Below are positions 19,050 to 28,142 of a stretch of DNA of 31,719 bases, piece by piece (positions within the stretch are counted from its first letter, which is position 1; every line of letters begins with the position of its first letter). The translations under genes and the position numbers were made by a program. The DNA is from Candidatus Levyibacteriota bacterium. Lineage in GTDB: Bacteria > Patescibacteriota > Microgenomatia > Levybacterales > GWA1-39-11. Where the stretch lies: contig JBDHUV010000001.1 of the NCBI GenBank assembly GCA_039809365.1, positions 1-31,719 on the forward strand. Reading direction: 5' to 3'. Below the pieces are notes generated by a model, which saw only the letters and a program-made list of their open reading frames with translations, had not been told where the DNA came from and ran no database searches.

Positions 19050-19514
19050 ATGGACAGAAAATATATATACGTTACTACTGATGGTCTTGAAGATCTAAAG
19101 AAAGAACTTGCTGAACTTAAAAAAGTTAAACGCCCTGAGGTGCTTGAAAGAGTAAGCCAAGCAAGAGCAATGGGTGATTTATCTGAAAATTCAGAGTATA
19201 CTGCAGCACGTGAGGAGCTTTCATTGATCGATGGAAGAGTTGAAGAGCTTGAAGATATGCTCAAAAGAGCAAAAATTATTCAAGAAGATGAAGGCGGGCA
19301 TGTAGTACAACTCGGATCTCGGGTAAATGTACTCGTAGGTGGTAAAAAAGAGTTGTTTACACTCGTAGGAGAGTGGGAAGCTGATCCTGCCGCAAGAAAA
19401 ATATCCCATGAGTCTCCTTTAGGAAAAGCACTGATTGGAAAATCTGTTGGTGAAAAAGTTGAAGTTAGCGCGCCAGCTGGAAAAATACTGTATCATATCC
19501 AAGGTATAGAGTAA
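19050..19514 (+). CDS. greA: Transcription elongation factor GreA
   Basis: ARAMGDLSENSEYTAAREE, VQLGSRV, ISHESPLGKALIGK. Confidence 0.97.
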   Translation: MDRKYIYVTTDGLEDLKKELAELKKVKRPEVLERVSQARAMGDLSENSEYTAAREELSLIDGRVEELEDMLKRAKIIQEDEGGHVVQLGSRVNVLVGGKKELFTLVGEWEADPAARKISHESPLGKALIGKSVGEKVEVSAPAGKILYHIQGIE

Positions 19515-19547
19515 AACGTATACCTTCCAGTGTGTCATAATTATTGA

Positions 19548-19576
19548 TTGACAATTGCTTTGTATATACTCATAAT
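19548..19576 (+). promoter_or_regulatory. Promoter for tdh-kbl (probably leaderless)
   Basis: TTGACA-N17-CATAAT, 6 nt before ATG 19583. Confidence 0.7.
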
Positions 19577-19582
19577 GCTACT

Positions 19583-20602
19583 ATGACACCAAAAACAATG
19601 CTCGCAGTCCTCAAAGAGAAACCAGAACCTGGTGTCCTAATAAAACAAGTTCCTGTTCCCACTCCAAAAAAAGATGAAGTCCTTGTGAAAGTAAAATATG
19701 CCTCAATCTGTGGTACAGATATTAATATTTATGACTGGAACACGTGGGCACAAGGACATATAACACCTCCTGCAATTATTGGGCATGAATTAGTAGGAGA
19801 AGTTGTTGAAATAAATGGCAAACCTGAAAATGATCTAAAAGTTGGAGATTTAGTAAGTTCTGAAACTCATATTTTCTGCCAAAACTGTTTCCAATGTAAA
19901 ATAGGGAATAAGCATATTTGTGAGAATATGGAGTTATTTGGGATTGGAAGAGACGGGTCATTTGCAGAATATACAACTATCCCACTTAAAACTACATGGA
20001 AAAATGATCCAAAAATTCCAGTTGAGTCGATGAGTGTACAAGAACCCTTAGGGAATGCAGTAAATGTAGTGACAAAAGCAGATGTGAAAGGAAAGAAAAT
20101 ACTCGTAATGGGGCTTGGTCCTACGGGGCTTTGTGCAGGAATGGTAGCAAAAGCATATGGTGCAAAAGAGGTAGTTGGAATTAATAGAAGAGAGTATAGA
20201 AGAAAGCTTGCACTCAAAATTGGATTTGATCGTGTACTCGAGGAATTACCTGAAAATGAGTACAATACATTTGATGCAGTTCTTGAGATGTCTGGAAATA
20301 GGATTGGTATTCAAGTCGCACTTGATGCGACTCGGATAGCGGGAAAAATAATTGCTTTTGGTATTCCTAAAGATACAATAGATATTGATTGGGGCAAATA
20401 TATGATTAATAAAGAGCTTTCAATTGATTCTGTATTTGGGCGTATGATTTGGGATACGTGGAACGATACAACTAAGTTATTAGTATCAGGGAAAGTTGAT
20501 CTTCGTAAAATTATTACTCATAGATTTAAACTATCTGAGTTTGAAAAAGCAATGGAAGTTATGAAAAGTGGAGAATGCGGTAAAGTACTTTTAGAACCAT
20601 AA
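19583..20602 (+). CDS. tdh: L-threonine 3-dehydrogenase (Zn-dependent MDR)
   Basis: ICGTD, GHE, VSSETHIFCQNCFQC...HIC, QEPLGNAV, GLGPTG; adjacent to kbl. Confidence 0.9.
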   Translation: MTPKTMLAVLKEKPEPGVLIKQVPVPTPKKDEVLVKVKYASICGTDINIYDWNTWAQGHITPPAIIGHELVGEVVEINGKPENDLKVGDLVSSETHIFCQNCFQCKIGNKHICENMELFGIGRDGSFAEYTTIPLKTTWKNDPKIPVESMSVQEPLGNAVNVVTKADVKGKKILVMGLGPTGLCAGMVAKAYGAKEVVGINRREYRRKLALKIGFDRVLEELPENEYNTFDAVLEMSGNRIGIQVALDATRIAGKIIAFGIPKDTIDIDWGKYMINKELSIDSVFGRMIWDTWNDTTKLLVSGKVDLRKIITHRFKLSEFEKAMEVMKSGECGKVLLEP

Positions 20603-20603
20603 T

Positions 20604-21800
20604 ATGAACATTCCCCAGTTTTATTCAAATCTTGAAAAAGAAGTAGCAAAAGGTAAAAAGCCAATGGTTATTCAGTCAGGACAAGGAGCATATCTTACCA
20701 TTGATGGGAAAGATAAATTAAATTTTTGTTCTAGTCACTATCTTGGCCTGGCAGAACATTCCCGATTAAAAGAAGCAATCATCGATGCTACTCAAAATTA
20801 TGGTGTTGGTACTGGATATAGAACTCTTGCAGGCACACACACATTACATATCGATCTTGAAAATGCAATTGCAAAATTTAAAGGTACAGAAAAAGCAGTA
20901 GTGTTCTCAAGTGCGTATATGGCCAATGCAGCAGCAATACAAACATTCCTTGGAAAAGAAGATATTGTTATTTCCGATGAGCTTAATCATGCCTCAATTA
21001 TTGATGCAGTTCGAGTAGCAGGGATTAAAAATAAATTTATTTACAAACATAGTGATATGGCAAGTCTTGAAGAACAGTTGAAGCTTGCTAGCGATCTTGG
21101 AAAAACAGCTAAAAGTGATGGGACAGATCCTATTATATTAATAGTAACTGATGGAGTATTCTCTATGGATGGTGATTTAGCGCCATTACCAGATATTGTT
21201 AAACTTGCAAAAAAATATCAAGCACTTACTATGGTTGATGATGCACATGGAGAGGGTGTATTGGGAAGAGGAGGACGGGGAATCGTAGATCATTTTGGTC
21301 TATTGGGTGAAATTGATATCGAAGTAGGAAGCCTTTCAAAAGCTTTTTCAGTAATGGGAGGTTTTATTGCTGGAAAAGAGCCACTCATTGATTATATTAA
21401 CTTAAAAGCACGTCAAAGACTTTTTTCAATTGCATTAACAATTCCCGATACAGCAGCAGCACTTGCAGCAGTAACGTTGTTACTTGAATCAGACTCTGTT
21501 GTTGCAAAACTGTGGGACAATGTAAAATACTTACAAGAAGAATTTAAAAAACGGGGGTTTGATACGGGTAATTCTCAAACACCCATTATCCCAGTTATGT
21601 TAGGTGATGAAGAGGTCGCAAAAGAATTCAGTCGAAAACTTTTCGATTTGGATGTTTTTGCCACCCCTATTGTTTTCCCCATGGTAGCAAAAGGAAAAGC
21701 ACGTATTCGCGTCATAGCTTCTGCTTCTCATTCACCTGAAGATCTTAATAAAGGTCTCAATGCATTTGAAAGAGTTGGAAAAGAATTGGGAGTAATTTAA
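20604..21800 (+). CDS. kbl: Glycine C-acetyltransferase (2-amino-3-ketobutyrate CoA ligase), PLP-dependent
   Basis: LNFCSSHYLGL, SDELNHASIIDA, TDGVFSMDGD, VDDAHGEG, GSLSKAF, ARIRV; 1 nt after tdh. Confidence 0.88.
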   Translation: MNIPQFYSNLEKEVAKGKKPMVIQSGQGAYLTIDGKDKLNFCSSHYLGLAEHSRLKEAIIDATQNYGVGTGYRTLAGTHTLHIDLENAIAKFKGTEKAVVFSSAYMANAAAIQTFLGKEDIVISDELNHASIIDAVRVAGIKNKFIYKHSDMASLEEQLKLASDLGKTAKSDGTDPIILIVTDGVFSMDGDLAPLPDIVKLAKKYQALTMVDDAHGEGVLGRGGRGIVDHFGLLGEIDIEVGSLSKAFSVMGGFIAGKEPLIDYINLKARQRLFSIALTIPDTAAALAAVTLLLESDSVVAKLWDNVKYLQEEFKKRGFDTGNSQTPIIPVMLGDEEVAKEFSRKLFDLDVFATPIVFPMVAKGKARIRVIASASHSPEDLNKGLNAFERVGKELGVI

Positions 21801-21829
21801 TTGACAATTATTTATATCCTTGTTAATAT
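21801..21829 (+). promoter_or_regulatory. Promoter for the lysS leader
   Basis: TTGACA-N17-TAATAT, 8 nt before ATG 21838. Confidence 0.7.
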
Positions 21830-21837
21830 ACCAACAT

Positions 21838-21882
21838 ATGAAAAATATTGTTAATAAATCCTCAAAGAAGTCTAGCTCCTAA
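21838..21882 (+). CDS. Putative leader peptide MKNIVNKSSKKSSS (14 aa, Lys/Ser rich)
   Basis: ATG AAA AAT ATT GTT AAT AAA TCC TCA AAG AAG TCT AGC TCC TAA, directly after a promoter and before alternative hairpins. Confidence 0.65.
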   Translation: MKNIVNKSSKKSSS

Positions 21883-21938
21883 CGGGGTTGTCTCTTTGTT
21901 GTCTAACAAAATAAAGATACCCCGAAAGGGGTTTTTTT
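21873..21938 (+). promoter_or_regulatory. Putative transcription attenuator (1:2 hairpin, antiterminator, terminator)
   Basis: 1:2 TAGCTCC-TAAC-GGGGTTG; 2:3 CGGGGT...ACCCCG long stem 21883-21924; 3:4 ACCCC-GAAA-GGGGT plus T-tract. Confidence 0.7.
21919..21938 (+). terminator. Intrinsic terminator upstream of lysS
   Basis: ACCCCGAAAGGGG followed by TTTTTTT. Confidence 0.8.
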
Positions 21939-21967
21939 GTATCTAAATAAGATATAATAGAGAAAAT

Positions 21968-23491
21968 ATGTATTGGTCAGACGAAGTAGCGCAAAAATTA
22001 AAAGAACGAAATTTACCGCTTGAGTGGGTTGACGATATGAAAACCCCAAGTGGTCGTATTCATGTGGGATCACTTATGGGAGTGGTTGTCCATGGATTAG
22101 TACATAGATCCTTAGAGGAGGTTGGAGTAAATACAAAATATACTTATGTATTTGAAAACCATGATCCGATGGATGACATCCCTTCGTATCTTCCTCAGGA
22201 AGAGTACAAACAGTATTTAGGCATGCCATTATATAAAATCCCCTCTCCTGTTGAAGGATATGAAAATTTTGCTGCATACTATGCGCAAGAATTTATGGAT
22301 ACATTTAATGCGTTAGGATTTCATCCAGAGATTTTGTGGACAAAAGACCTGTACATGTCTGGGAAAATGAATGATGGAATTAAAAAAGTTCTTGACCAAG
22401 CAGATGTAATCAGAGACATCTATAAAGAGTTATATAAAAAAGAAGTAGCACAAGATTGGTATCCGTTCCAAGTATATTGTGAGCAGTGCGGAAAAGTATC
22501 TACGACAAGAGTATATAACTGGGATGGAGAGAATGTACACTATCGTTGCCCGATTGATGCAACTGACTGGACTCCTGGATGTGGATATGAAGGCAAAGTC
22601 TCACCATATAGTGATGAAAGTAGGTTTACTGGGAAAATGCCTTGGAAAGTAGAGTGGGCAGTGAAATGGCAAGCTATTGGTGTAACAGTCGAAGGCGCTG
22701 GGAAGGATCATATGAGTAAAGGTGGATCTCACGATCTTGCCACAATGGTTGCAGAAAAAGTACTTAAATATCCTGTTCCCTATCCTGTTGGATATGAATT
22801 TTTACTTATTGGAGGCAAAAAAATGTCATCTTCAAAAGGGAGAGGGTACGCCGCAGCTGATATGCTTCAAATACTACCACCAGAACTCCTTAGGTTTTTA
22901 TTAGTAAAAATGAATATAAAACAGCAGACTAATTTCGATCCTACAGAAGCAGATACAATACCCAAACTTTTTGATGAGTATCAGGAGTATTCTCAACACT
23001 ATTTTGATGATGCAAAAGATGACTATGCCCGAGTTTTTGAACTATCCCAAATAGGAGAGATTCAACAGCCTCCAAGTACTCGTTTTACGACTCTTGCACA
23101 ATGGGTACAGATGCCAAATATGCAGGAAACAATTGAAAAAGAAGGGTTATTGAACTGGGCACCTTATGCCAAATTTTGGTTAGAGAATTTTGCACCAGAA
23201 AAAGATAGATTTACTGTACAAGAAACATTGCCAGAATCAGTGAATGGACTCACTGAGTTACAAAAAGACTATTTAAAAAAACTTGCATCATTGTTAGATG
23301 AGATAAATACTGCAGATCAACTCCAGATTGCATTGTATGATCTTGCAAAAGGGATAAATTTAGGAGGTAAAGAAGCTTTCCAAGCAATTTACACTTCAAT
23401 TTTAGGAAAATCTTCTGGACCAAAAGCAGCGTGGCTCATTTTTTCACTAGACCGTGAATTTGTAAAACAAAGATTTGCGGAAGTCTCATGA
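21968..23491 (+). CDS. lysS: Lysine--tRNA ligase, class I
   Basis: TPSGRIHVG (HIGH), GKMPWKVEWAVKW, EGAGKDH, KMSSSKG (KMSKS), PELLRF. Confidence 0.95.
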   Translation: MYWSDEVAQKLKERNLPLEWVDDMKTPSGRIHVGSLMGVVVHGLVHRSLEEVGVNTKYTYVFENHDPMDDIPSYLPQEEYKQYLGMPLYKIPSPVEGYENFAAYYAQEFMDTFNALGFHPEILWTKDLYMSGKMNDGIKKVLDQADVIRDIYKELYKKEVAQDWYPFQVYCEQCGKVSTTRVYNWDGENVHYRCPIDATDWTPGCGYEGKVSPYSDESRFTGKMPWKVEWAVKWQAIGVTVEGAGKDHMSKGGSHDLATMVAEKVLKYPVPYPVGYEFLLIGGKKMSSSKGRGYAAADMLQILPPELLRFLLVKMNIKQQTNFDPTEADTIPKLFDEYQEYSQHYFDDAKDDYARVFELSQIGEIQQPPSTRFTTLAQWVQMPNMQETIEKEGLLNWAPYAKFWLENFAPEKDRFTVQETLPESVNGLTELQKDYLKKLASLLDEINTADQLQIALYDLAKGINLGGKEAFQAIYTSILGKSSGPKAAWLIFSLDREFVKQRFAEVS

Positions 23492-24036
23492 AGCCGCTTG
23501 TATTTGTAACAAGTAATAAAGATAAAGCAAAAGAAGTTGAAGAAATACTGGGTATTCCTTTAGAAATTAAAAATCTTGAGCTCCCTGAAATACAAGATAT
23601 TGATGTTGAAAAGGTTGTAGAGTATAAAGCGCAACAAGCATTTAATAGAGTAAAAAGTCCAGTGTTAGTAGATGATGCAGGATTATATGTCCATGCATGG
23701 GAAGGTTTTCCAGGTGCATTTATAAAATATATTTTCAATTCGGCAGGATTAGATAAAATGAATAAATGGTTAGAATCAGAGTCTGATAAAAGTATTACAG
23801 TAATAGCAGCACTTGGATATCATGATGGAAATAAAGTACATACATTTACAGGGAAAGTAAAAGCAACGTTTGTTGATCCGAAAGGAGACCAAGGATGGGG
23901 TTTTGATCCCTATATTCTACCTGAAGGTGAGACAGAAACATGGGCACAACAAGGGGGAGAAAAGAAAAATGCTAGTTCACATAGATATAATGCATTAGTA
24001 AATTTTAAAAACTATTTAAATAAATTAGAAAAGTAG
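23488..24036 (+). CDS. rdgB: Non-canonical purine NTP pyrophosphatase (RdgB/Ham1/ITPA family)
   Basis: VTSNKDK, LPEIQ, VDDAGL, FPGAFIK, GWGFDP, SSHR; ATGA overlap with lysS. Confidence 0.92.
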   Translation: MKPLVFVTSNKDKAKEVEEILGIPLEIKNLELPEIQDIDVEKVVEYKAQQAFNRVKSPVLVDDAGLYVHAWEGFPGAFIKYIFNSAGLDKMNKWLESESDKSITVIAALGYHDGNKVHTFTGKVKATFVDPKGDQGWGFDPYILPEGETETWAQQGGEKKNASSHRYNALVNFKNYLNKLEK

Positions 24037-24061
24037 TATAATCCAATTACAAATTTTAAGT

Positions 24062-25297
24062 ATGTTAGATATTAAATATATTCAAGAAAATCCAGAAAAA
24101 GTCCAAGAGGCAGCTCTTGCAAAAGGGATTACGGTTTCAATCGGAGAATTACTTGATGCTGAGAAAGAGTATAGAGAGGTATTTACTCAAGTACAGTCAT
24201 TAAGGGCAGAAAGAAATGCAGCTGCGAAATCACGGGATATAGAAAAAGGCAAAGAAATAAAAGGGAAACTTGAAGAATTAGAGCCTCGGCTTGCTGAACT
24301 GGAAGAAAAAGTTCAAACACTCCTTTGGAATATTCCAAATCCTTCAAAAGATGACGTAAAAGTTGGGAAAGATGATTCAGAGAATGAGATTATTCGTAAA
24401 TTTGGAGAACCAACTACTTTTTCATTTAAACCTCGTGATCATGTAGAACTTGGACAGATGTTGGACATTATAGATATTGAACGGGCAACCAAGATATCTG
24501 GGAGTAGATTTTATTATTTAAAAAATGAAGGAGTTTTGTTAGAACAAGCACTTCTCAGATACGCGCTCGACACATTACTTCCTCAAGGTTTTATACCTAT
24601 TCTTCCTCCTGTTCTTATTACAGAAGATACAATGAAACGACTTGGCTATATGGAAAATGGAGGAGATGAAGATATGTTTAGAATTGAAAAAGATAAACTT
24701 ATTTTAGTTGCTACTGCAGAACAATCAATTGCTCCAATTCATAAAGATGAAACACTTGATGAAGATGAACTTCCAAAAAGATATGTCGGATACTCACCTT
24801 CATTTAGAAGAGAAGCAGGAAGTTATGGAAAAGACACAAGAGGAATCTTAAGAGTTCATCAGTTTAATAAAGTAGAGATGGTGTCATTTGTGAAAAAAGG
24901 AGAAGATGATAAAGAACATGAGTTTCTACTAGGAATTGAAGAGAAGTTTTTTCAAGAATTAGGTATTCCTTACCAAGTATCAAAAATGTGTACGGGTGAT
25001 CTTGGGTTTCCTGCTGCAAGAAAGTATGATATAGAAGCGTGGATTCCTACCCAAGAAAAATACAGAGAAGTTACTTCAGTCTCTACTGTTACAGATTTTC
25101 AAAGTAGAAGATTAAATACAAAGTACAAAACAAAAGATGGAACTGAGTATGTACAGATTTTGAATGGTACAGCATTTTCAATAGGTCGCCCTATTATTGC
25201 GATTTTAGAGAACTTCCAACAAGAAGATGGGACTGTAATTATTCCAGAAGTATTAAGACAGTATACAGGGTTTGATAAAATCTCTCCTAAAAAATAA
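24062..25297 (+). CDS. serS: Serine--tRNA ligase
   Basis: MLDIKYI, IPNP, KISGSRFYYL, ATAE, FRREAGSYGKDTRGILRVHQFNKVE, YDIEAW, TDFQSRRL, LNGTA. Confidence 0.97.
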   Translation: MLDIKYIQENPEKVQEAALAKGITVSIGELLDAEKEYREVFTQVQSLRAERNAAAKSRDIEKGKEIKGKLEELEPRLAELEEKVQTLLWNIPNPSKDDVKVGKDDSENEIIRKFGEPTTFSFKPRDHVELGQMLDIIDIERATKISGSRFYYLKNEGVLLEQALLRYALDTLLPQGFIPILPPVLITEDTMKRLGYMENGGDEDMFRIEKDKLILVATAEQSIAPIHKDETLDEDELPKRYVGYSPSFRREAGSYGKDTRGILRVHQFNKVEMVSFVKKGEDDKEHEFLLGIEEKFFQELGIPYQVSKMCTGDLGFPAARKYDIEAWIPTQEKYREVTSVSTVTDFQSRRLNTKYKTKDGTEYVQILNGTAFSIGRPIIAILENFQQEDGTVIIPEVLRQYTGFDKISPKK

Positions 25298-25403: not shown

Positions 25404-28142
25404 ATGCTTAATTTTGTCTCCAAATATTTCGATTCTAATGACAGGGAATTAAAAAAACTACAGCCTATTGTAGATGAGATCAACTCTCTTGAAAAAGGGA
25501 TGAAAAAACTTAAAGACTCAGACTTCCCTAAAAAAACAAAAGAGTTACAAAAACAAATTGCTGAAGGTACAAGTGTGTACATGGTATTGCCTGAGGCATT
25601 TGCATTGGTTCGTGAAGCAGCAGTTCGTACAATTGGACTGAGACATTATGATGTTCAGATGCTTGCTGCTATTGTTCTTGCACAGGGGAAAGTTGCAGAG
25701 CAAAAAACTGGAGAAGGGAAAACATTGTCTGCTGTTCCGGCATTATATCTCCACGCATTAACAGGAAAATCAGTTCACTTGGTGACGGTGAATGATTATC
25801 TTGCTCGGCGTGATGCAGGATGGATGGGTGCTGTATTCCATTTCCTTGGTATGAGTGTTGCCTCTATTATTAATGATACTTCATATGTATATGACAGTGA
25901 ATATCTTGATGAATCAGCAACTGATTATCGGCTGTCTCATCTGAGACAAATATCCAGAAAAGAGGCATATCAAAAGAATGTTATATACGGTATTAACTCA
26001 GAGTTTGGATTTGATTATCTGCGAGATAACATGAAGTTTGATATTAGTGAAGTTGTACAAGGTGAACATTACTTCTCAGTTGTCGACGAGGTAGACTCTG
26101 TTTTGATCGATGAAGCTCGTACTCCACATATTATCTCAATGCCTGATAGTACACCATCAAACAAATACTATGAATATGCTCAGGTAGTAGAAAAATTACA
26201 AGCAGATACTGATTATAAAATTGATGAAAAATTCAGAACAGCCCATCTTACTGATCATGGTATCTCAAAAATTGAATCATTATTTGGTATTAGAGATATT
26301 TATGAGAAAGATTTTGAGACTGTTTATCATATAGAAGCAGCTTTAAAAGCAAAAACTCTTTATCATCGTAATAAAGAATATATTGTTCGTGAAGGACAGG
26401 TTATCTTAGTTGATGAGTTTACAGGGCGTTTACTTCCAGGAAGAAGACTATCTGAGGGTTTGCATCAGGCGCTTGAAGCAAAAGAAAATGTCCAAGTCCA
26501 GCAAGAATCAAAAACACTTGCAACAGTATCTCTTCAAAACTATTTCCGAATGTATGAAATATTAGCAGGTATGACAGGTACTGCTATTACAGAAGCAGAA
26601 GAGTTTTTCAAGATTTATAAACTAGAGGTAGTTACTATCCCTACGAATAATCCAGTTCAGCGTGTAGATCTTCCTGATCAAATCTATAAAACAGTTCGAG
26701 CAAAATATGCAGCAGTAGTAGTTGAGATTGAGAAAGCACATAAAAAAGGTCAACCAGTATTAATCGGTACAACTTCTATTGAGAAAAATGAGATTATTGC
26801 AGAGTTATTAAAACGTAAGAAAATTCCACATCAAGTATTGAATGCAAAAAATCATTTACAAGAGGCAATGATTATTAGTGAAGCAGGAAGGAAAGGTGCA
26901 GTAACTGTTGCTACAAATATGGCAGGTCGTGGAGTAGATATTATTTTAGGAGGGCAAGCACCTTCTAGTTTTGAGAAAGATTATCAAGGGGATAAAGGAA
27001 AGAAAAAGTTTGAAAAAGAATATGGTGAATGGAAAAAATCTCATGATGCAGTAGTAAATGCAGGTGGACTTTTTGTCATTGGTACTGAAAAACATGAAAG
27101 TAGAAGAATTGATAATCAGTTGAGAGGGAGGTCTGGAAGACAAGGAGACCCTGGTGCCTCTATTTTTATATTATCACTTGAGGATGATCTTATGAGAATT
27201 TTTGGAGGAGATCAGATCGCAAGTATGATGACTCGCTTTAATTTCCCAGAAGATCAACCATTGACTCATGGGCTCGTCACTCGCGTACTTGAACAAGCTC
27301 AAGTGAAAGTTGAAGGATTTAATTTTGAATCGAGAAAAAGAACACTTGATTATGATGATGTTCTTAATAAACAGCGGGAAATTATTTACTCAAGAAGAAG
27401 AAAAATTCTAGAAGGAAAAGAAAATCCCACAGATCACATGATGGAGAGAGTGTATGCAGTTATTGAGCGTTCAGTACTGTTTAATTTAGATGTAAATCAA
27501 GAACAAGGTGGATATAAAAAGATTATTGAAGATTTCACAACGGTAATTAATTTTGATGAGCATTCACAGACTCATTTACTTTCAACAATAGAGGGAAAGC
27601 CTACTGAAGAAGTAATAAAGTTTCTTTATGGGGTTGTAGAAGATATTGAGAAAAAACGTGAGAAAGAATATGGAAGAGAAAATATTGACCAAATTATGAA
27701 AGCGGTCTCTCTGCAGACAATGGACAATTTATGGATGGAACATTTAACTGCAATAGAAGATTTGAGAACTGGGATCAGTCTGAGAGGATTTGCTCAGCGC
27801 GATCCAATTGTAGAGTATAAAAAAGAAGCATTTACGTTATTTGAAACATTAGTAACTTCAATTGATGATGAGATAGTGCATAGAGCATTCCGTATTGATA
27901 TCCAAATACAACACAATCACCAACCTCATACTCATGCAAATGAAGGAGTCACTAACCAATTAGAGTCTGAGATAGGTGCAAAAGGTGTAGAAAAAAATAA
28001 AGAGAAAGCAAAGAAAGTTGAGAAAAAACATGCAAGTCTTAAAAAAGCTGAGAAAATTGGGCGGAATGATCCATGCCCTTGTGGCTCCGGATTGAAATAT
28101 AAGAAATGTGGACTTATTAACTCTCCTCAGCATAGAGCTTAA
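25404..28142 (+). CDS. secA: Preprotein translocase ATPase SecA
   Basis: RHYDVQM, KTGEGKT, VTVNDYLARRD, VDEVDSVLIDEARTP, GMTGTA, ATNMAGRGVDI, QLRGRSGRQGDPG, SEC-C GRNDPCPCGSGLKYKKC. Confidence 0.98.
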   Translation: MLNFVSKYFDSNDRELKKLQPIVDEINSLEKGMKKLKDSDFPKKTKELQKQIAEGTSVYMVLPEAFALVREAAVRTIGLRHYDVQMLAAIVLAQGKVAEQKTGEGKTLSAVPALYLHALTGKSVHLVTVNDYLARRDAGWMGAVFHFLGMSVASIINDTSYVYDSEYLDESATDYRLSHLRQISRKEAYQKNVIYGINSEFGFDYLRDNMKFDISEVVQGEHYFSVVDEVDSVLIDEARTPHIISMPDSTPSNKYYEYAQVVEKLQADTDYKIDEKFRTAHLTDHGISKIESLFGIRDIYEKDFETVYHIEAALKAKTLYHRNKEYIVREGQVILVDEFTGRLLPGRRLSEGLHQALEAKENVQVQQESKTLATVSLQNYFRMYEILAGMTGTAITEAEEFFKIYKLEVVTIPTNNPVQRVDLPDQIYKTVRAKYAAVVVEIEKAHKKGQPVLIGTTSIEKNEIIAELLKRKKIPHQVLNAKNHLQEAMIISEAGRKGAVTVATNMAGRGVDIILGGQAPSSFEKDYQGDKGKKKFEKEYGEWKKSHDAVVNAGGLFVIGTEKHESRRIDNQLRGRSGRQGDPGASIFILSLEDDLMRIFGGDQIASMMTRFNFPEDQPLTHGLVTRVLEQAQVKVEGFNFESRKRTLDYDDVLNKQREIIYSRRRKILEGKENPTDHMMERVYAVIERSVLFNLDVNQEQGGYKKIIEDFTTVINFDEHSQTHLLSTIEGKPTEEVIKFLYGVVEDIEKKREKEYGRENIDQIMKAVSLQTMDNLWMEHLTAIEDLRTGISLRGFAQRDPIVEYKKEAFTLFETLVTSIDDEIVHRAFRIDIQIQHNHQPHTHANEGVTNQLESEIGAKGVEKNKEKAKKVEKKHASLKKAEKIGRNDPCPCGSGLKYKKCGLINSPQHRA

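Follow-up and report, generated by a model that had tools for sequence, protein, structure and literature searches.

A probable lysine-type leader-peptide attenuator upstream of class I lysS in a Levybacteria genome and its relatives across Microgenomatia

What does the 167-nt gap in front of lysS, the class I lysyl-tRNA synthetase (LysRS) gene of a Levybacteria genome, do, and which amino acid, if any, does it sense? The gap, which holds the leader described here, lies between the end of a Kbl-like aminotransferase gene at 21800 and the start of lysS at 21968 in a 31,719-nt stretch of DNA (positions 1 to 31,719 of Candidatus Levyibacteriota contig JBDHUV010000001.1, assembly GCA_039809365.1), which is referred to as the window. 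The contig belongs to Levybacteria (Microgenomatia, Patescibacteria or Candidate Phyla Radiation, CPR), the genome has a GC content of 35.5%, and the LysRS and leader coordinates are those of the forward strand. The original prediction for this gap was a dual Lys/Ser leader-peptide attenuator controlling lysS-rdgB-serS. The analysis reported here indicates that the element is very probably a classical ribosome-mediated leader-peptide transcription attenuator, most likely reporting the supply of charged tRNA-Lys, as judged from its sequence and that of its relatives.

The leader begins with a promoter on the + strand (21801-21829), located 1 nt past the stop of the upstream aminotransferase gene and consisting of a TTGACA -35 hexamer (21801-21806), a 17-nt spacer and a TGn-extended TAATAT -10 hexamer (21824-21829), with the TG at 21821-21822; the two hexamers score 10/12, together with the TG. 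Eight nucleotides (ACCAACAT) separate TAATAT from the ATG at 21838 of a small open reading frame (sORF; 21838-21882, + strand), which encodes MKNIVNKSSKKSSS in 14 codons followed by TAA (21880-21882). The codons are atg aaa aat att gtt aat aaa tcc tca aag aag tct agc tcc taa, and the final eight sense codons read K S S K K S S S. There is no Shine-Dalgarno (SD) sequence and the ATG lies 8 nt past the -10 hexamer, from which the sORF is predicted to be leaderless or nearly so. The tandem AAG AAG codons of Lys10 and Lys11 (21865-21870, + strand; positions -5 and -4 relative to the stop) are the proposed sensor codons.

Three overlapping helices surround and follow the sORF stop codon. Segment 1 (UAGCUCC, 21873-21879, + strand) is formed by the last sORF codons and pairs with segment 2, giving a putative anti-antiterminator or pause hairpin. 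Segment 2 (CGGGGUUGUCUCUUUGUU, 21883-21900, + strand) begins at the nucleotide following the stop codon and supplies the 5′ side of the antiterminator, the 3′ arm of which is segment 3 (AACAAAAUAAAGAUACCCCG, 21905-21924, + strand); the last 6 nt of segment 3 double as the 5′ arm of the intrinsic terminator, ACCCC GAAA GGGGU then U7 (21919-21938, + strand; hairpin 21919-21932, T7 21932-21938). Helix 1:2 (21873-21890) pairs UAGCUCC with GGGGUUG (21884-21890) across the loop UAAC, so that the stop codon sits inside the loop and strand 2 begins at 21883, and has a predicted energy of -7.1 kcal/mol. Helix 2:3 (21883-21924) comprises 6+4+6 pairs at -14.1 kcal/mol, and helix 3:4, the terminator (21919-21932), is at -8.3 kcal/mol. 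The antiterminator and the terminator are mutually exclusive, as both use 21919-21924. The fold of the 141-nt leader is more stable than 200/200 dinucleotide shuffles (z = -3.2). The promoter, the SD-less ATG placed 8 nt past the -10 hexamer in a leaderless-looking start, the peptide with its K/S-rich last codons, the three helices and the U-tract had all been proposed in the original prediction, and each was recovered at the same coordinates. An Rfam cmscan of 21000-22600 with E up to 10 returned only noise (best 19-22 bits, compared with gathering scores of 54-68), and in this interval there was no match to a leader family (Trp_leader, His_leader, Thr_leader, Leu_leader, Phe_leader), to the T-box or to the Lysine model. 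When the genome of the window was searched for further copies of the 167-nt leader, only the leader itself was returned.

From this anatomy we infer the transcription start, the ribosome positions and the response to starvation as follows. RNA polymerase would start approximately 7 nt past TAATAT, so that the AUG at 21838 would be at, or directly adjacent to, the 5′ end of the transcript and the ribosome would load without an SD sequence. When Lys-tRNA is plentiful, the ribosome would reach the UAA at 21880-21882 and its footprint would cover the segment 2 G-run (21883-21890); with segment 2 masked, the 3:4 terminator and its U7 tract would end the transcript near 21938. When Lys-tRNA is scarce, the ribosome would stall with a rare AAG (21865-21870) in the A site and cover segment 1 only, leaving segment 2 free to form helix 2:3 (-14.1 vs -8.3 kcal/mol for the terminator), and the polymerase would read into lysS and probably into rdgB and serS. 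With standard ribosome footprints, an A site on AAG11 would give coverage to about 21880, with strand 1 masked and strand 2 free, and an A site on UAA would give coverage to about 21892, with the strand 2 G-run masked. In untranslated transcripts, for example those arriving from the upstream aminotransferase gene, helices 1:2 and 3:4 would both form and transcription would stop.

The arrangement recurs in related genomes. The lysS loci of 60 related genomes were gathered and their upstream regions read, and covariance models were built from the window element as a single sequence, from seven sequences (R2) and from 61 sequences (R3). MAFFT alignments of the leaders set the stems out of register; model-based alignments and an alignment-free swap test were used instead. 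The single-sequence model found six homologues in the lysS loci of relatives. Among them is the leader of G046, a member of another family whose LysRS is 57% identical and whose layout is the same as that of the window: a TTGACG-17-TATAAT promoter, a 15-codon open reading frame (MTYVFSAKKSNKKNL) with TAA followed directly by CGAGGGC...GCCCUC, an overlapping terminator (CCCUCC-CCA-GGAGGG + U7) and, at the far end, the -10 box of lysS. R2 matches 47/61 related genomes; in approximately 23 of these, lysS is preceded at a distance of 0.05-3 kb, and in the same orientation, by a Lys-type element. R3 matches 24/151 genomes sampled across the class Microgenomatia and, among 76 additional lysS loci, 20, always on the lysS strand. 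The orthologous leader of the same-genus genome G001 was located on another contig end.

The scaffold shared by these elements is a promoter, an sORF of 12-24 codons, a stop abutting a G-run, an antiterminator, a terminator and a U-run. In 52/70 model matches the sORF stop is followed by the G-run (GGGG, GGGAGG, GGCGG) within 0-2 nt; in these 52 family members the U-run lies 42-71 nt beyond the G-run, and all 52 have helices 1:2, 2:3 and 3:4, with median energies of -7.9, -14.7 and -12.6 kcal/mol, respectively. In relatives, lysS likewise has homologous terminators in front of it that run into TTTTTTTGT(A/G). Most of the element flanks inspected (judged by eye, with no tally) have a -35 hexamer resembling TTGACA at about 17 nt from a TAnnnT whose end is about 8-15 nt from the sORF ATG, and several elements located directly after greA have no such promoter. 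In the swap test, native 2:3 duplexes had a mean energy of -14.7 kcal/mol compared with -10.6 kcal/mol for swapped ones, and native 1:2 duplexes -10.3 compared with -8.9 kcal/mol, with 0/5000 permutations as low in either case. In the 61-sequence alignment, which was fitted to the model, 87% of the 2:3 cells pair vs 66% in shuffles, and compensatory changes are seen in 18/18 pairs. On this comparison of sequences, the window element is homologous to dozens of elements in relatives and is not a chance arrangement.

These data also bear on another reading of the gap, namely an ordinary terminator of the tdh-kbl operon followed by a lysS promoter, with the sORF and helix 2:3 arising by chance. 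The window terminator would indeed stop transcripts from kbl, and many relatives (L011, L012, L026, L027 and L030) have just greA, a plain terminator, TTTTTTTGTA, a -10 box and lysS, without an sORF. However, the full scaffold recurs in many genera, with the stop codon locked to the G-run, with a helix 2:3 that covaries and with a codon content that tracks the downstream gene. It recurs also where the upstream gene is divergent, as in G046, in which the terminator therefore cannot serve the upstream gene. An ordinary terminator is accordingly regarded as extremely improbable.

The decisive evidence is the agreement between leader codons and the genes behind them. Across the family, the codons 3-8 positions before the stop track the downstream gene. 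Leaders with KK precede class I LysRS, class II LysRS (NCBIfam lysS_bact), aspartokinase, LysW/LysX and a homocitrate-synthase-like gene (read from its N-terminal sequence). TTTT leaders precede thrS; MMxMM leaders a DUF62-like gene (also read from its N-terminal sequence) and then metG; CCC leaders cysS; W leaders trpS, often just past a YerC/TrpR-like gene; RRR leaders argS; and FFFGF leaders DAHP synthase, with the Phe type found also before pheS. In 39 leaders linked to aminoacyl-tRNA synthetase (aaRS) genes, the cognate residues at -2 to -9 number 120, whereas 20000 permutations of the labels averaged 58 and never exceeded 93. The Lys-type element is found with LysRS of class I and also with the unrelated class II enzyme, and little other than lysine-specific regulation would readily explain this.

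Several individual leaders can be described alongside these types. The genome of the window has a second member, a Phe-rich leader (VRKLFTFFTLLPLRGDSLVVRARK followed by a stop codon) with an antiterminator and a terminator on contig C65:2225-2340 (locus L103, ~1501-1616); it lies between rplT and a 73-residue open reading frame, a NUDIX gene and pheS, which is the position of pheM in E. coli. Met-rich leaders at L078, L202, L206 and L209 (G053, G131, G197, G203) precede a DUF62/SAM-hydrolase-like gene with an N-terminal TTDFGD motif, after which metG follows in G131 and G203. Leaders of aspartokinase mix Lys and Thr codons (SKTKTTL, VKKTKTTP and TKTKKTTKKTLK at L048, L064 and L196, i.e. G012:C1:61688, G030:C8:2988 and G114:C50:1975), and could possibly be two-amino-acid attenuators for a branch-point enzyme. 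Two thrS leaders, L086 (G001:C4:6395-6488) and L072 (G003:C7:17921-18019), keep the scaffold and encode MNSHQLVLSMQMKSS and MIITTNVMMQMKAS, each followed by a stop codon, with Met and Gln codons in place of a Thr run. Arrest by a conserved nascent stalling peptide was considered as the basis of the family and rejected, as leader peptides of different types share the structural tail only.

Another possibility is that the ~100-nt unit from promoter to terminator is a free-standing small gene, for a trans-acting small RNA or a basic peptide of 14 residues, whose position before lysS is incidental or secondary. The unit does have a strong promoter and a terminator of its own, the lysS promoter is separate, and some attenuator RNAs and leader peptides have documented roles in trans, for example rnTrpL and peTrpL of Sinorhizobium (PMC7968998, PMC7298713). 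The peptides, however, are unconserved outside the cognate run and the structural tail, and the element stays with lysine-related genes across two LysRS classes and biosynthesis operons, with sister elements next to their own cognates. The fixed position of the stop against the antiterminator arm in 52 members makes sense only for a cis switch. A free-standing gene is thus considered very unlikely.

Within the Lys-type leaders, the sensor can be placed more precisely. K is found at -4 in 17/21 and at -5 in 15/21 of these leaders. Among Lys codons no more than eight codons from the stop, AAG outnumbers AAA by 63 to 18, compared with 2 to 9 further upstream, and AAG makes up 17% of Lys codons genome-wide. 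The assembly, 91% complete, lacks the tRNA-Lys genes. Pairing to the U-run would be no worse with AAA, so the preference points to selection at the level of the codon. Classical leaders, too, can place a rare codon where they sense the amino acid, as leuL does with CUA.

Several observations weigh against a lysine-sensing attenuator in the window or reduce the force of the evidence for it. The four Lys codons among the 14 of the window sORF are unremarkable alone at this GC content, and the orthologous leader in the same-genus G001 reads AAG CAG (K-Q) in place of AAG AAG. Two thrS leaders of the window's genus have none or only two Thr codons, so that a clean cognate run is not a feature of every member. 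The alignments behind the pair counts were fitted to the structure, and the related genomes are non-independent, so that the permutation figures overstate significance. The contigs from RNA libraries that fall on the window (four of thirteen runs) are nine in number and 151-267 nt long, and all of them lie within coding regions, with none over 21536-22003. A conserved -10 box directly before lysS allows its expression without read-through. Moreover, the lysS AUG is internal on read-through transcripts and has no clear SD sequence, so that the translational gain would be uncertain.

Does the leader sense serine as well? The UCC UCA and UCU codons flanking AAG AAG could also stall ribosomes under Ser shortage, in which case one leader would serve both lysS and serS. 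The Ser codons at -3, -6 and -7 fall inside the -3 to -8 span occupied by cognate codons in other types, 'S-K-K' recurs, with Ser frequent at -6 and -7 and S at -6 in 9/21 Lys-type leaders, and a hand tally gave a mean Ser count at -3 to -9 of approximately 1.8 where serS lies <1 kb from lysS vs approximately 0.5 where it is unlinked. As the mixed Lys/Thr leaders of aspartokinase show, two-input leaders do occur within the family, and thrL, with Thr and Ile, is a known dual-amino-acid attenuator. However, the last two or three codons (UCC, CUC, UCG, CCG and similar) are the C/U-rich strand of helix 1 that pairs with the G-run; as strand 1 they have to be C/U-rich, and Thr-, Ile-, Trp-, Met- and Arg-type leaders also end in Ser, Leu or Pro, with S at -1 in 6/12 Thr leaders. 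A ribosome halted at AGC or UCC (21874-21879) would sit over segment 2 and favour termination, which is the opposite of the required response.

UC(C/A) AAG AAG also heads lysine-biosynthesis operons, the leaders of G004, G015 and G020 are without Ser despite a linked serS, and the linked cases with high Ser counts are close kin; the count tracks linkage weakly, and kinship confounds the comparison. A dedicated look at genomes in which serS is unlinked from lysS found no Ser-type leader before serS; these serS genes have a TTGACC...GATATAAT promoter 6-8 nt before the ATG. A TATAAT-type box of its own precedes serS in 10/15 relatives examined. It is therefore unlikely that the leader integrates two inputs within the lineage-wide regulon, with AAG AAG reporting Lys-tRNA and UCC UCA / UCU reporting Ser-tRNA. 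Of the dual attenuator first proposed, the 1:2 / 2:3 / 3:4 leader-peptide geometry is upheld by homologues, covariation and the match between codons and genes, and the lysine half by the K at -4 in 17/21 leaders and the rare AAG; the serine half is not, given the structural role of the terminal Ser codons and the lack of a Ser-type leader before unlinked serS. It had also been suggested that relatives be compared, and they proved to have a conserved sORF with covarying stems, but Ser codons that follow serS linkage only weakly and in a manner confounded by kinship.

Promoter-like boxes also lie downstream of the lysine-type attenuator. A TATAAT box on the + strand (21953-21958), 9 nt before the lysS ATG, is a predicted lysS promoter, and 67/77 loci have a -10-like box whose end is 5-10 nt from the lysS ATG, compared with 9.6 in control windows. 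A second TATAAT box (24037-24042, + strand) lies 19 nt upstream of the serS ATG in the window, and in the ten relatives with such a box it is located 5-7 nt before the ATG. Where lysS and serS carry TAnAAT boxes of this kind there is no SD sequence (window 21953-21970 and 24037-24064; L106-L185 at ~1480-1503; L213-L228), and leaderless mRNAs are predicted for both genes in Levybacteria. Some relatives keep just greA, a plain terminator, the lysS promoter and lysS, and the attenuator is therefore dispensable for basal expression. The proximal promoter would probably give a basal, leaderless lysS mRNA, to which the attenuator would add read-through under lysine shortage. With conserved -10 boxes belonging to both lysS and serS, the attenuator is an additional contributor to lysS expression and not its exclusive control. 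The internal boxes had been named as a possible bypass in the original prediction, and this caveat is both real and conserved; control of lysS-rdgB-serS is accordingly plausible as read-through into lysS, and does not hold as sole control.

The first gene that read-through would meet is lysS (21968-23491, + strand; Pfam tRNA-synt_1f, 4.2e-91), followed by rdgB of the Ham1 family (23488-24036, + strand), serS encoding SerRS (24062-25297, + strand) and secA (25404-28142), all assigned by Pfam. On the 5′ side of the leader, Pfam identifies GreA, an ADH/Tdh-like gene and a class I/II aminotransferase (Kbl-like). Linkage of lysS to serS is common across the order. In the window (19050-21800), the ADH-family (Tdh-like) and Kbl-like genes separate greA from the leader; in many relatives greA directly precedes the leader or terminator and then lysS, and in G054 kbl lies directly before lysS. 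In eight relatives (G009, G014, G026, G028, G034, G055, G056, G057) the class I LysRS frame is 748-770 residues long, compared with 507 here, which suggests a C-terminal extension or fusion of approximately 250 residues.

Most family members have a poorly conserved small open reading frame of 50-190 residues, led by a strong SD sequence, between the attenuator and the synthetase gene (loci L034-L102; e.g. L038:1620-2048, L042:1614-1844). The window has no such frame, and the same-genus G002 and G003 have one of 136-139 residues (the G001 copy is cut by a contig end). These frames were considered as one protein family and as cognate-rich peptides, and both proposals were rejected: 49/69 are singletons without a Pfam match, and those of the Lys type are Lys-poor, at 4.8% K. 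The contig of G002 ends 49 nt before lysS, with at least seven tandem AGTTATT repeats directly before the lysS ATG, and that of G003 starts 17 nt before lysS; the region 5′ of lysS seems hard to assemble in the window's genus.

Taken as a whole, the window leader belongs to a large set of such switches in Microgenomatia that appears to be unpublished. There is good support for a lineage-wide regulon built on one attenuator scaffold, which has been re-coded for ten or more amino acids and fills the role that T-boxes have in Firmicutes. The value of the single locus is mainly that of a well-documented Lys-type member on an aaRS gene and an entry point to this class-wide regulon. Gene regulation in CPR bacteria, with their tiny genomes, is little known, and this locus and its relatives indicate one reusable, ribosome-sensed switch for the Lys, Thr, Met, Cys, Trp, Arg and Phe synthetase genes of Microgenomatia, with some genes of lysine, threonine and aromatic biosynthesis under the same type of switch. 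The leader codons offer a route to annotating the specificity of unannotated operons, and the reading predicts leaderless translation of the sensor sORFs and of lysS. The parts are compact (~100 nt) and could be used in cell-free coupled systems, although the organisms are uncultured. Should the two-input version be true, a single switch would tune an operon with two synthetases, lysS and serS.

The mechanism itself is the textbook one of the trp/his/pheM scheme, and a literature search found neither a Lys-type member on an aaRS gene, or any such leader before lysS, nor a published description of such leaders in CPR/Patescibacteria. Lysine-specific T-boxes precede class I lysK in the Bacillus cereus group. 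The T-box and the L-box lysine riboswitch resemble the window element in raising LysRS or lysine-pathway expression at low lysine or low charged tRNA-Lys through a choice between terminator and antiterminator; unlike it, they work without translation, measure 180-300 nt and recognise tRNA or lysine by direct binding. In Thermus thermophilus, a leader peptide with tandem Lys codons reportedly controls terminator read-through in the lysine (alpha-aminoadipate) cluster. The tandem Lys codons are shared with the window element, and in Microgenomatia the sister elements of the latter stand before genes of that pathway, LysW/LysX and homocitrate-synthase-like ones. The Thermus element, in contrast, controls biosynthesis genes and not lysS, and is likened here by its description.

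The apparently leaderless start has a counterpart in the polycysteine sensor sORFs of mycobacteria, documented as leaderless (bioRxiv 10.1101/834739). These also place a sensor sORF at the 5′ end of the transcript, without an SD sequence and with codons cognate to the downstream operon; they sense Cys, and the likeness is one of the sORF. For pheST, trpS and leuS, classical attenuators in front of the aaRS gene have been documented or predicted, the predictions for trpS and leuS being from Streptomyces (PMC1262725). E. coli pheM-pheST and Streptomyces trpS/leuS are the closest in design: a short leader open reading frame with cognate codons, and a terminator overlapped by an antiterminator, lie in front of an aaRS gene, and a stalled ribosome frees strand 2. 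The window element differs from them in that it would sense Lys and not Phe, Trp or Leu, matches no Rfam leader family, is found in a CPR (Levybacteria) host, has an sORF that appears leaderless, and is followed by a second conserved promoter between the terminator and lysS.

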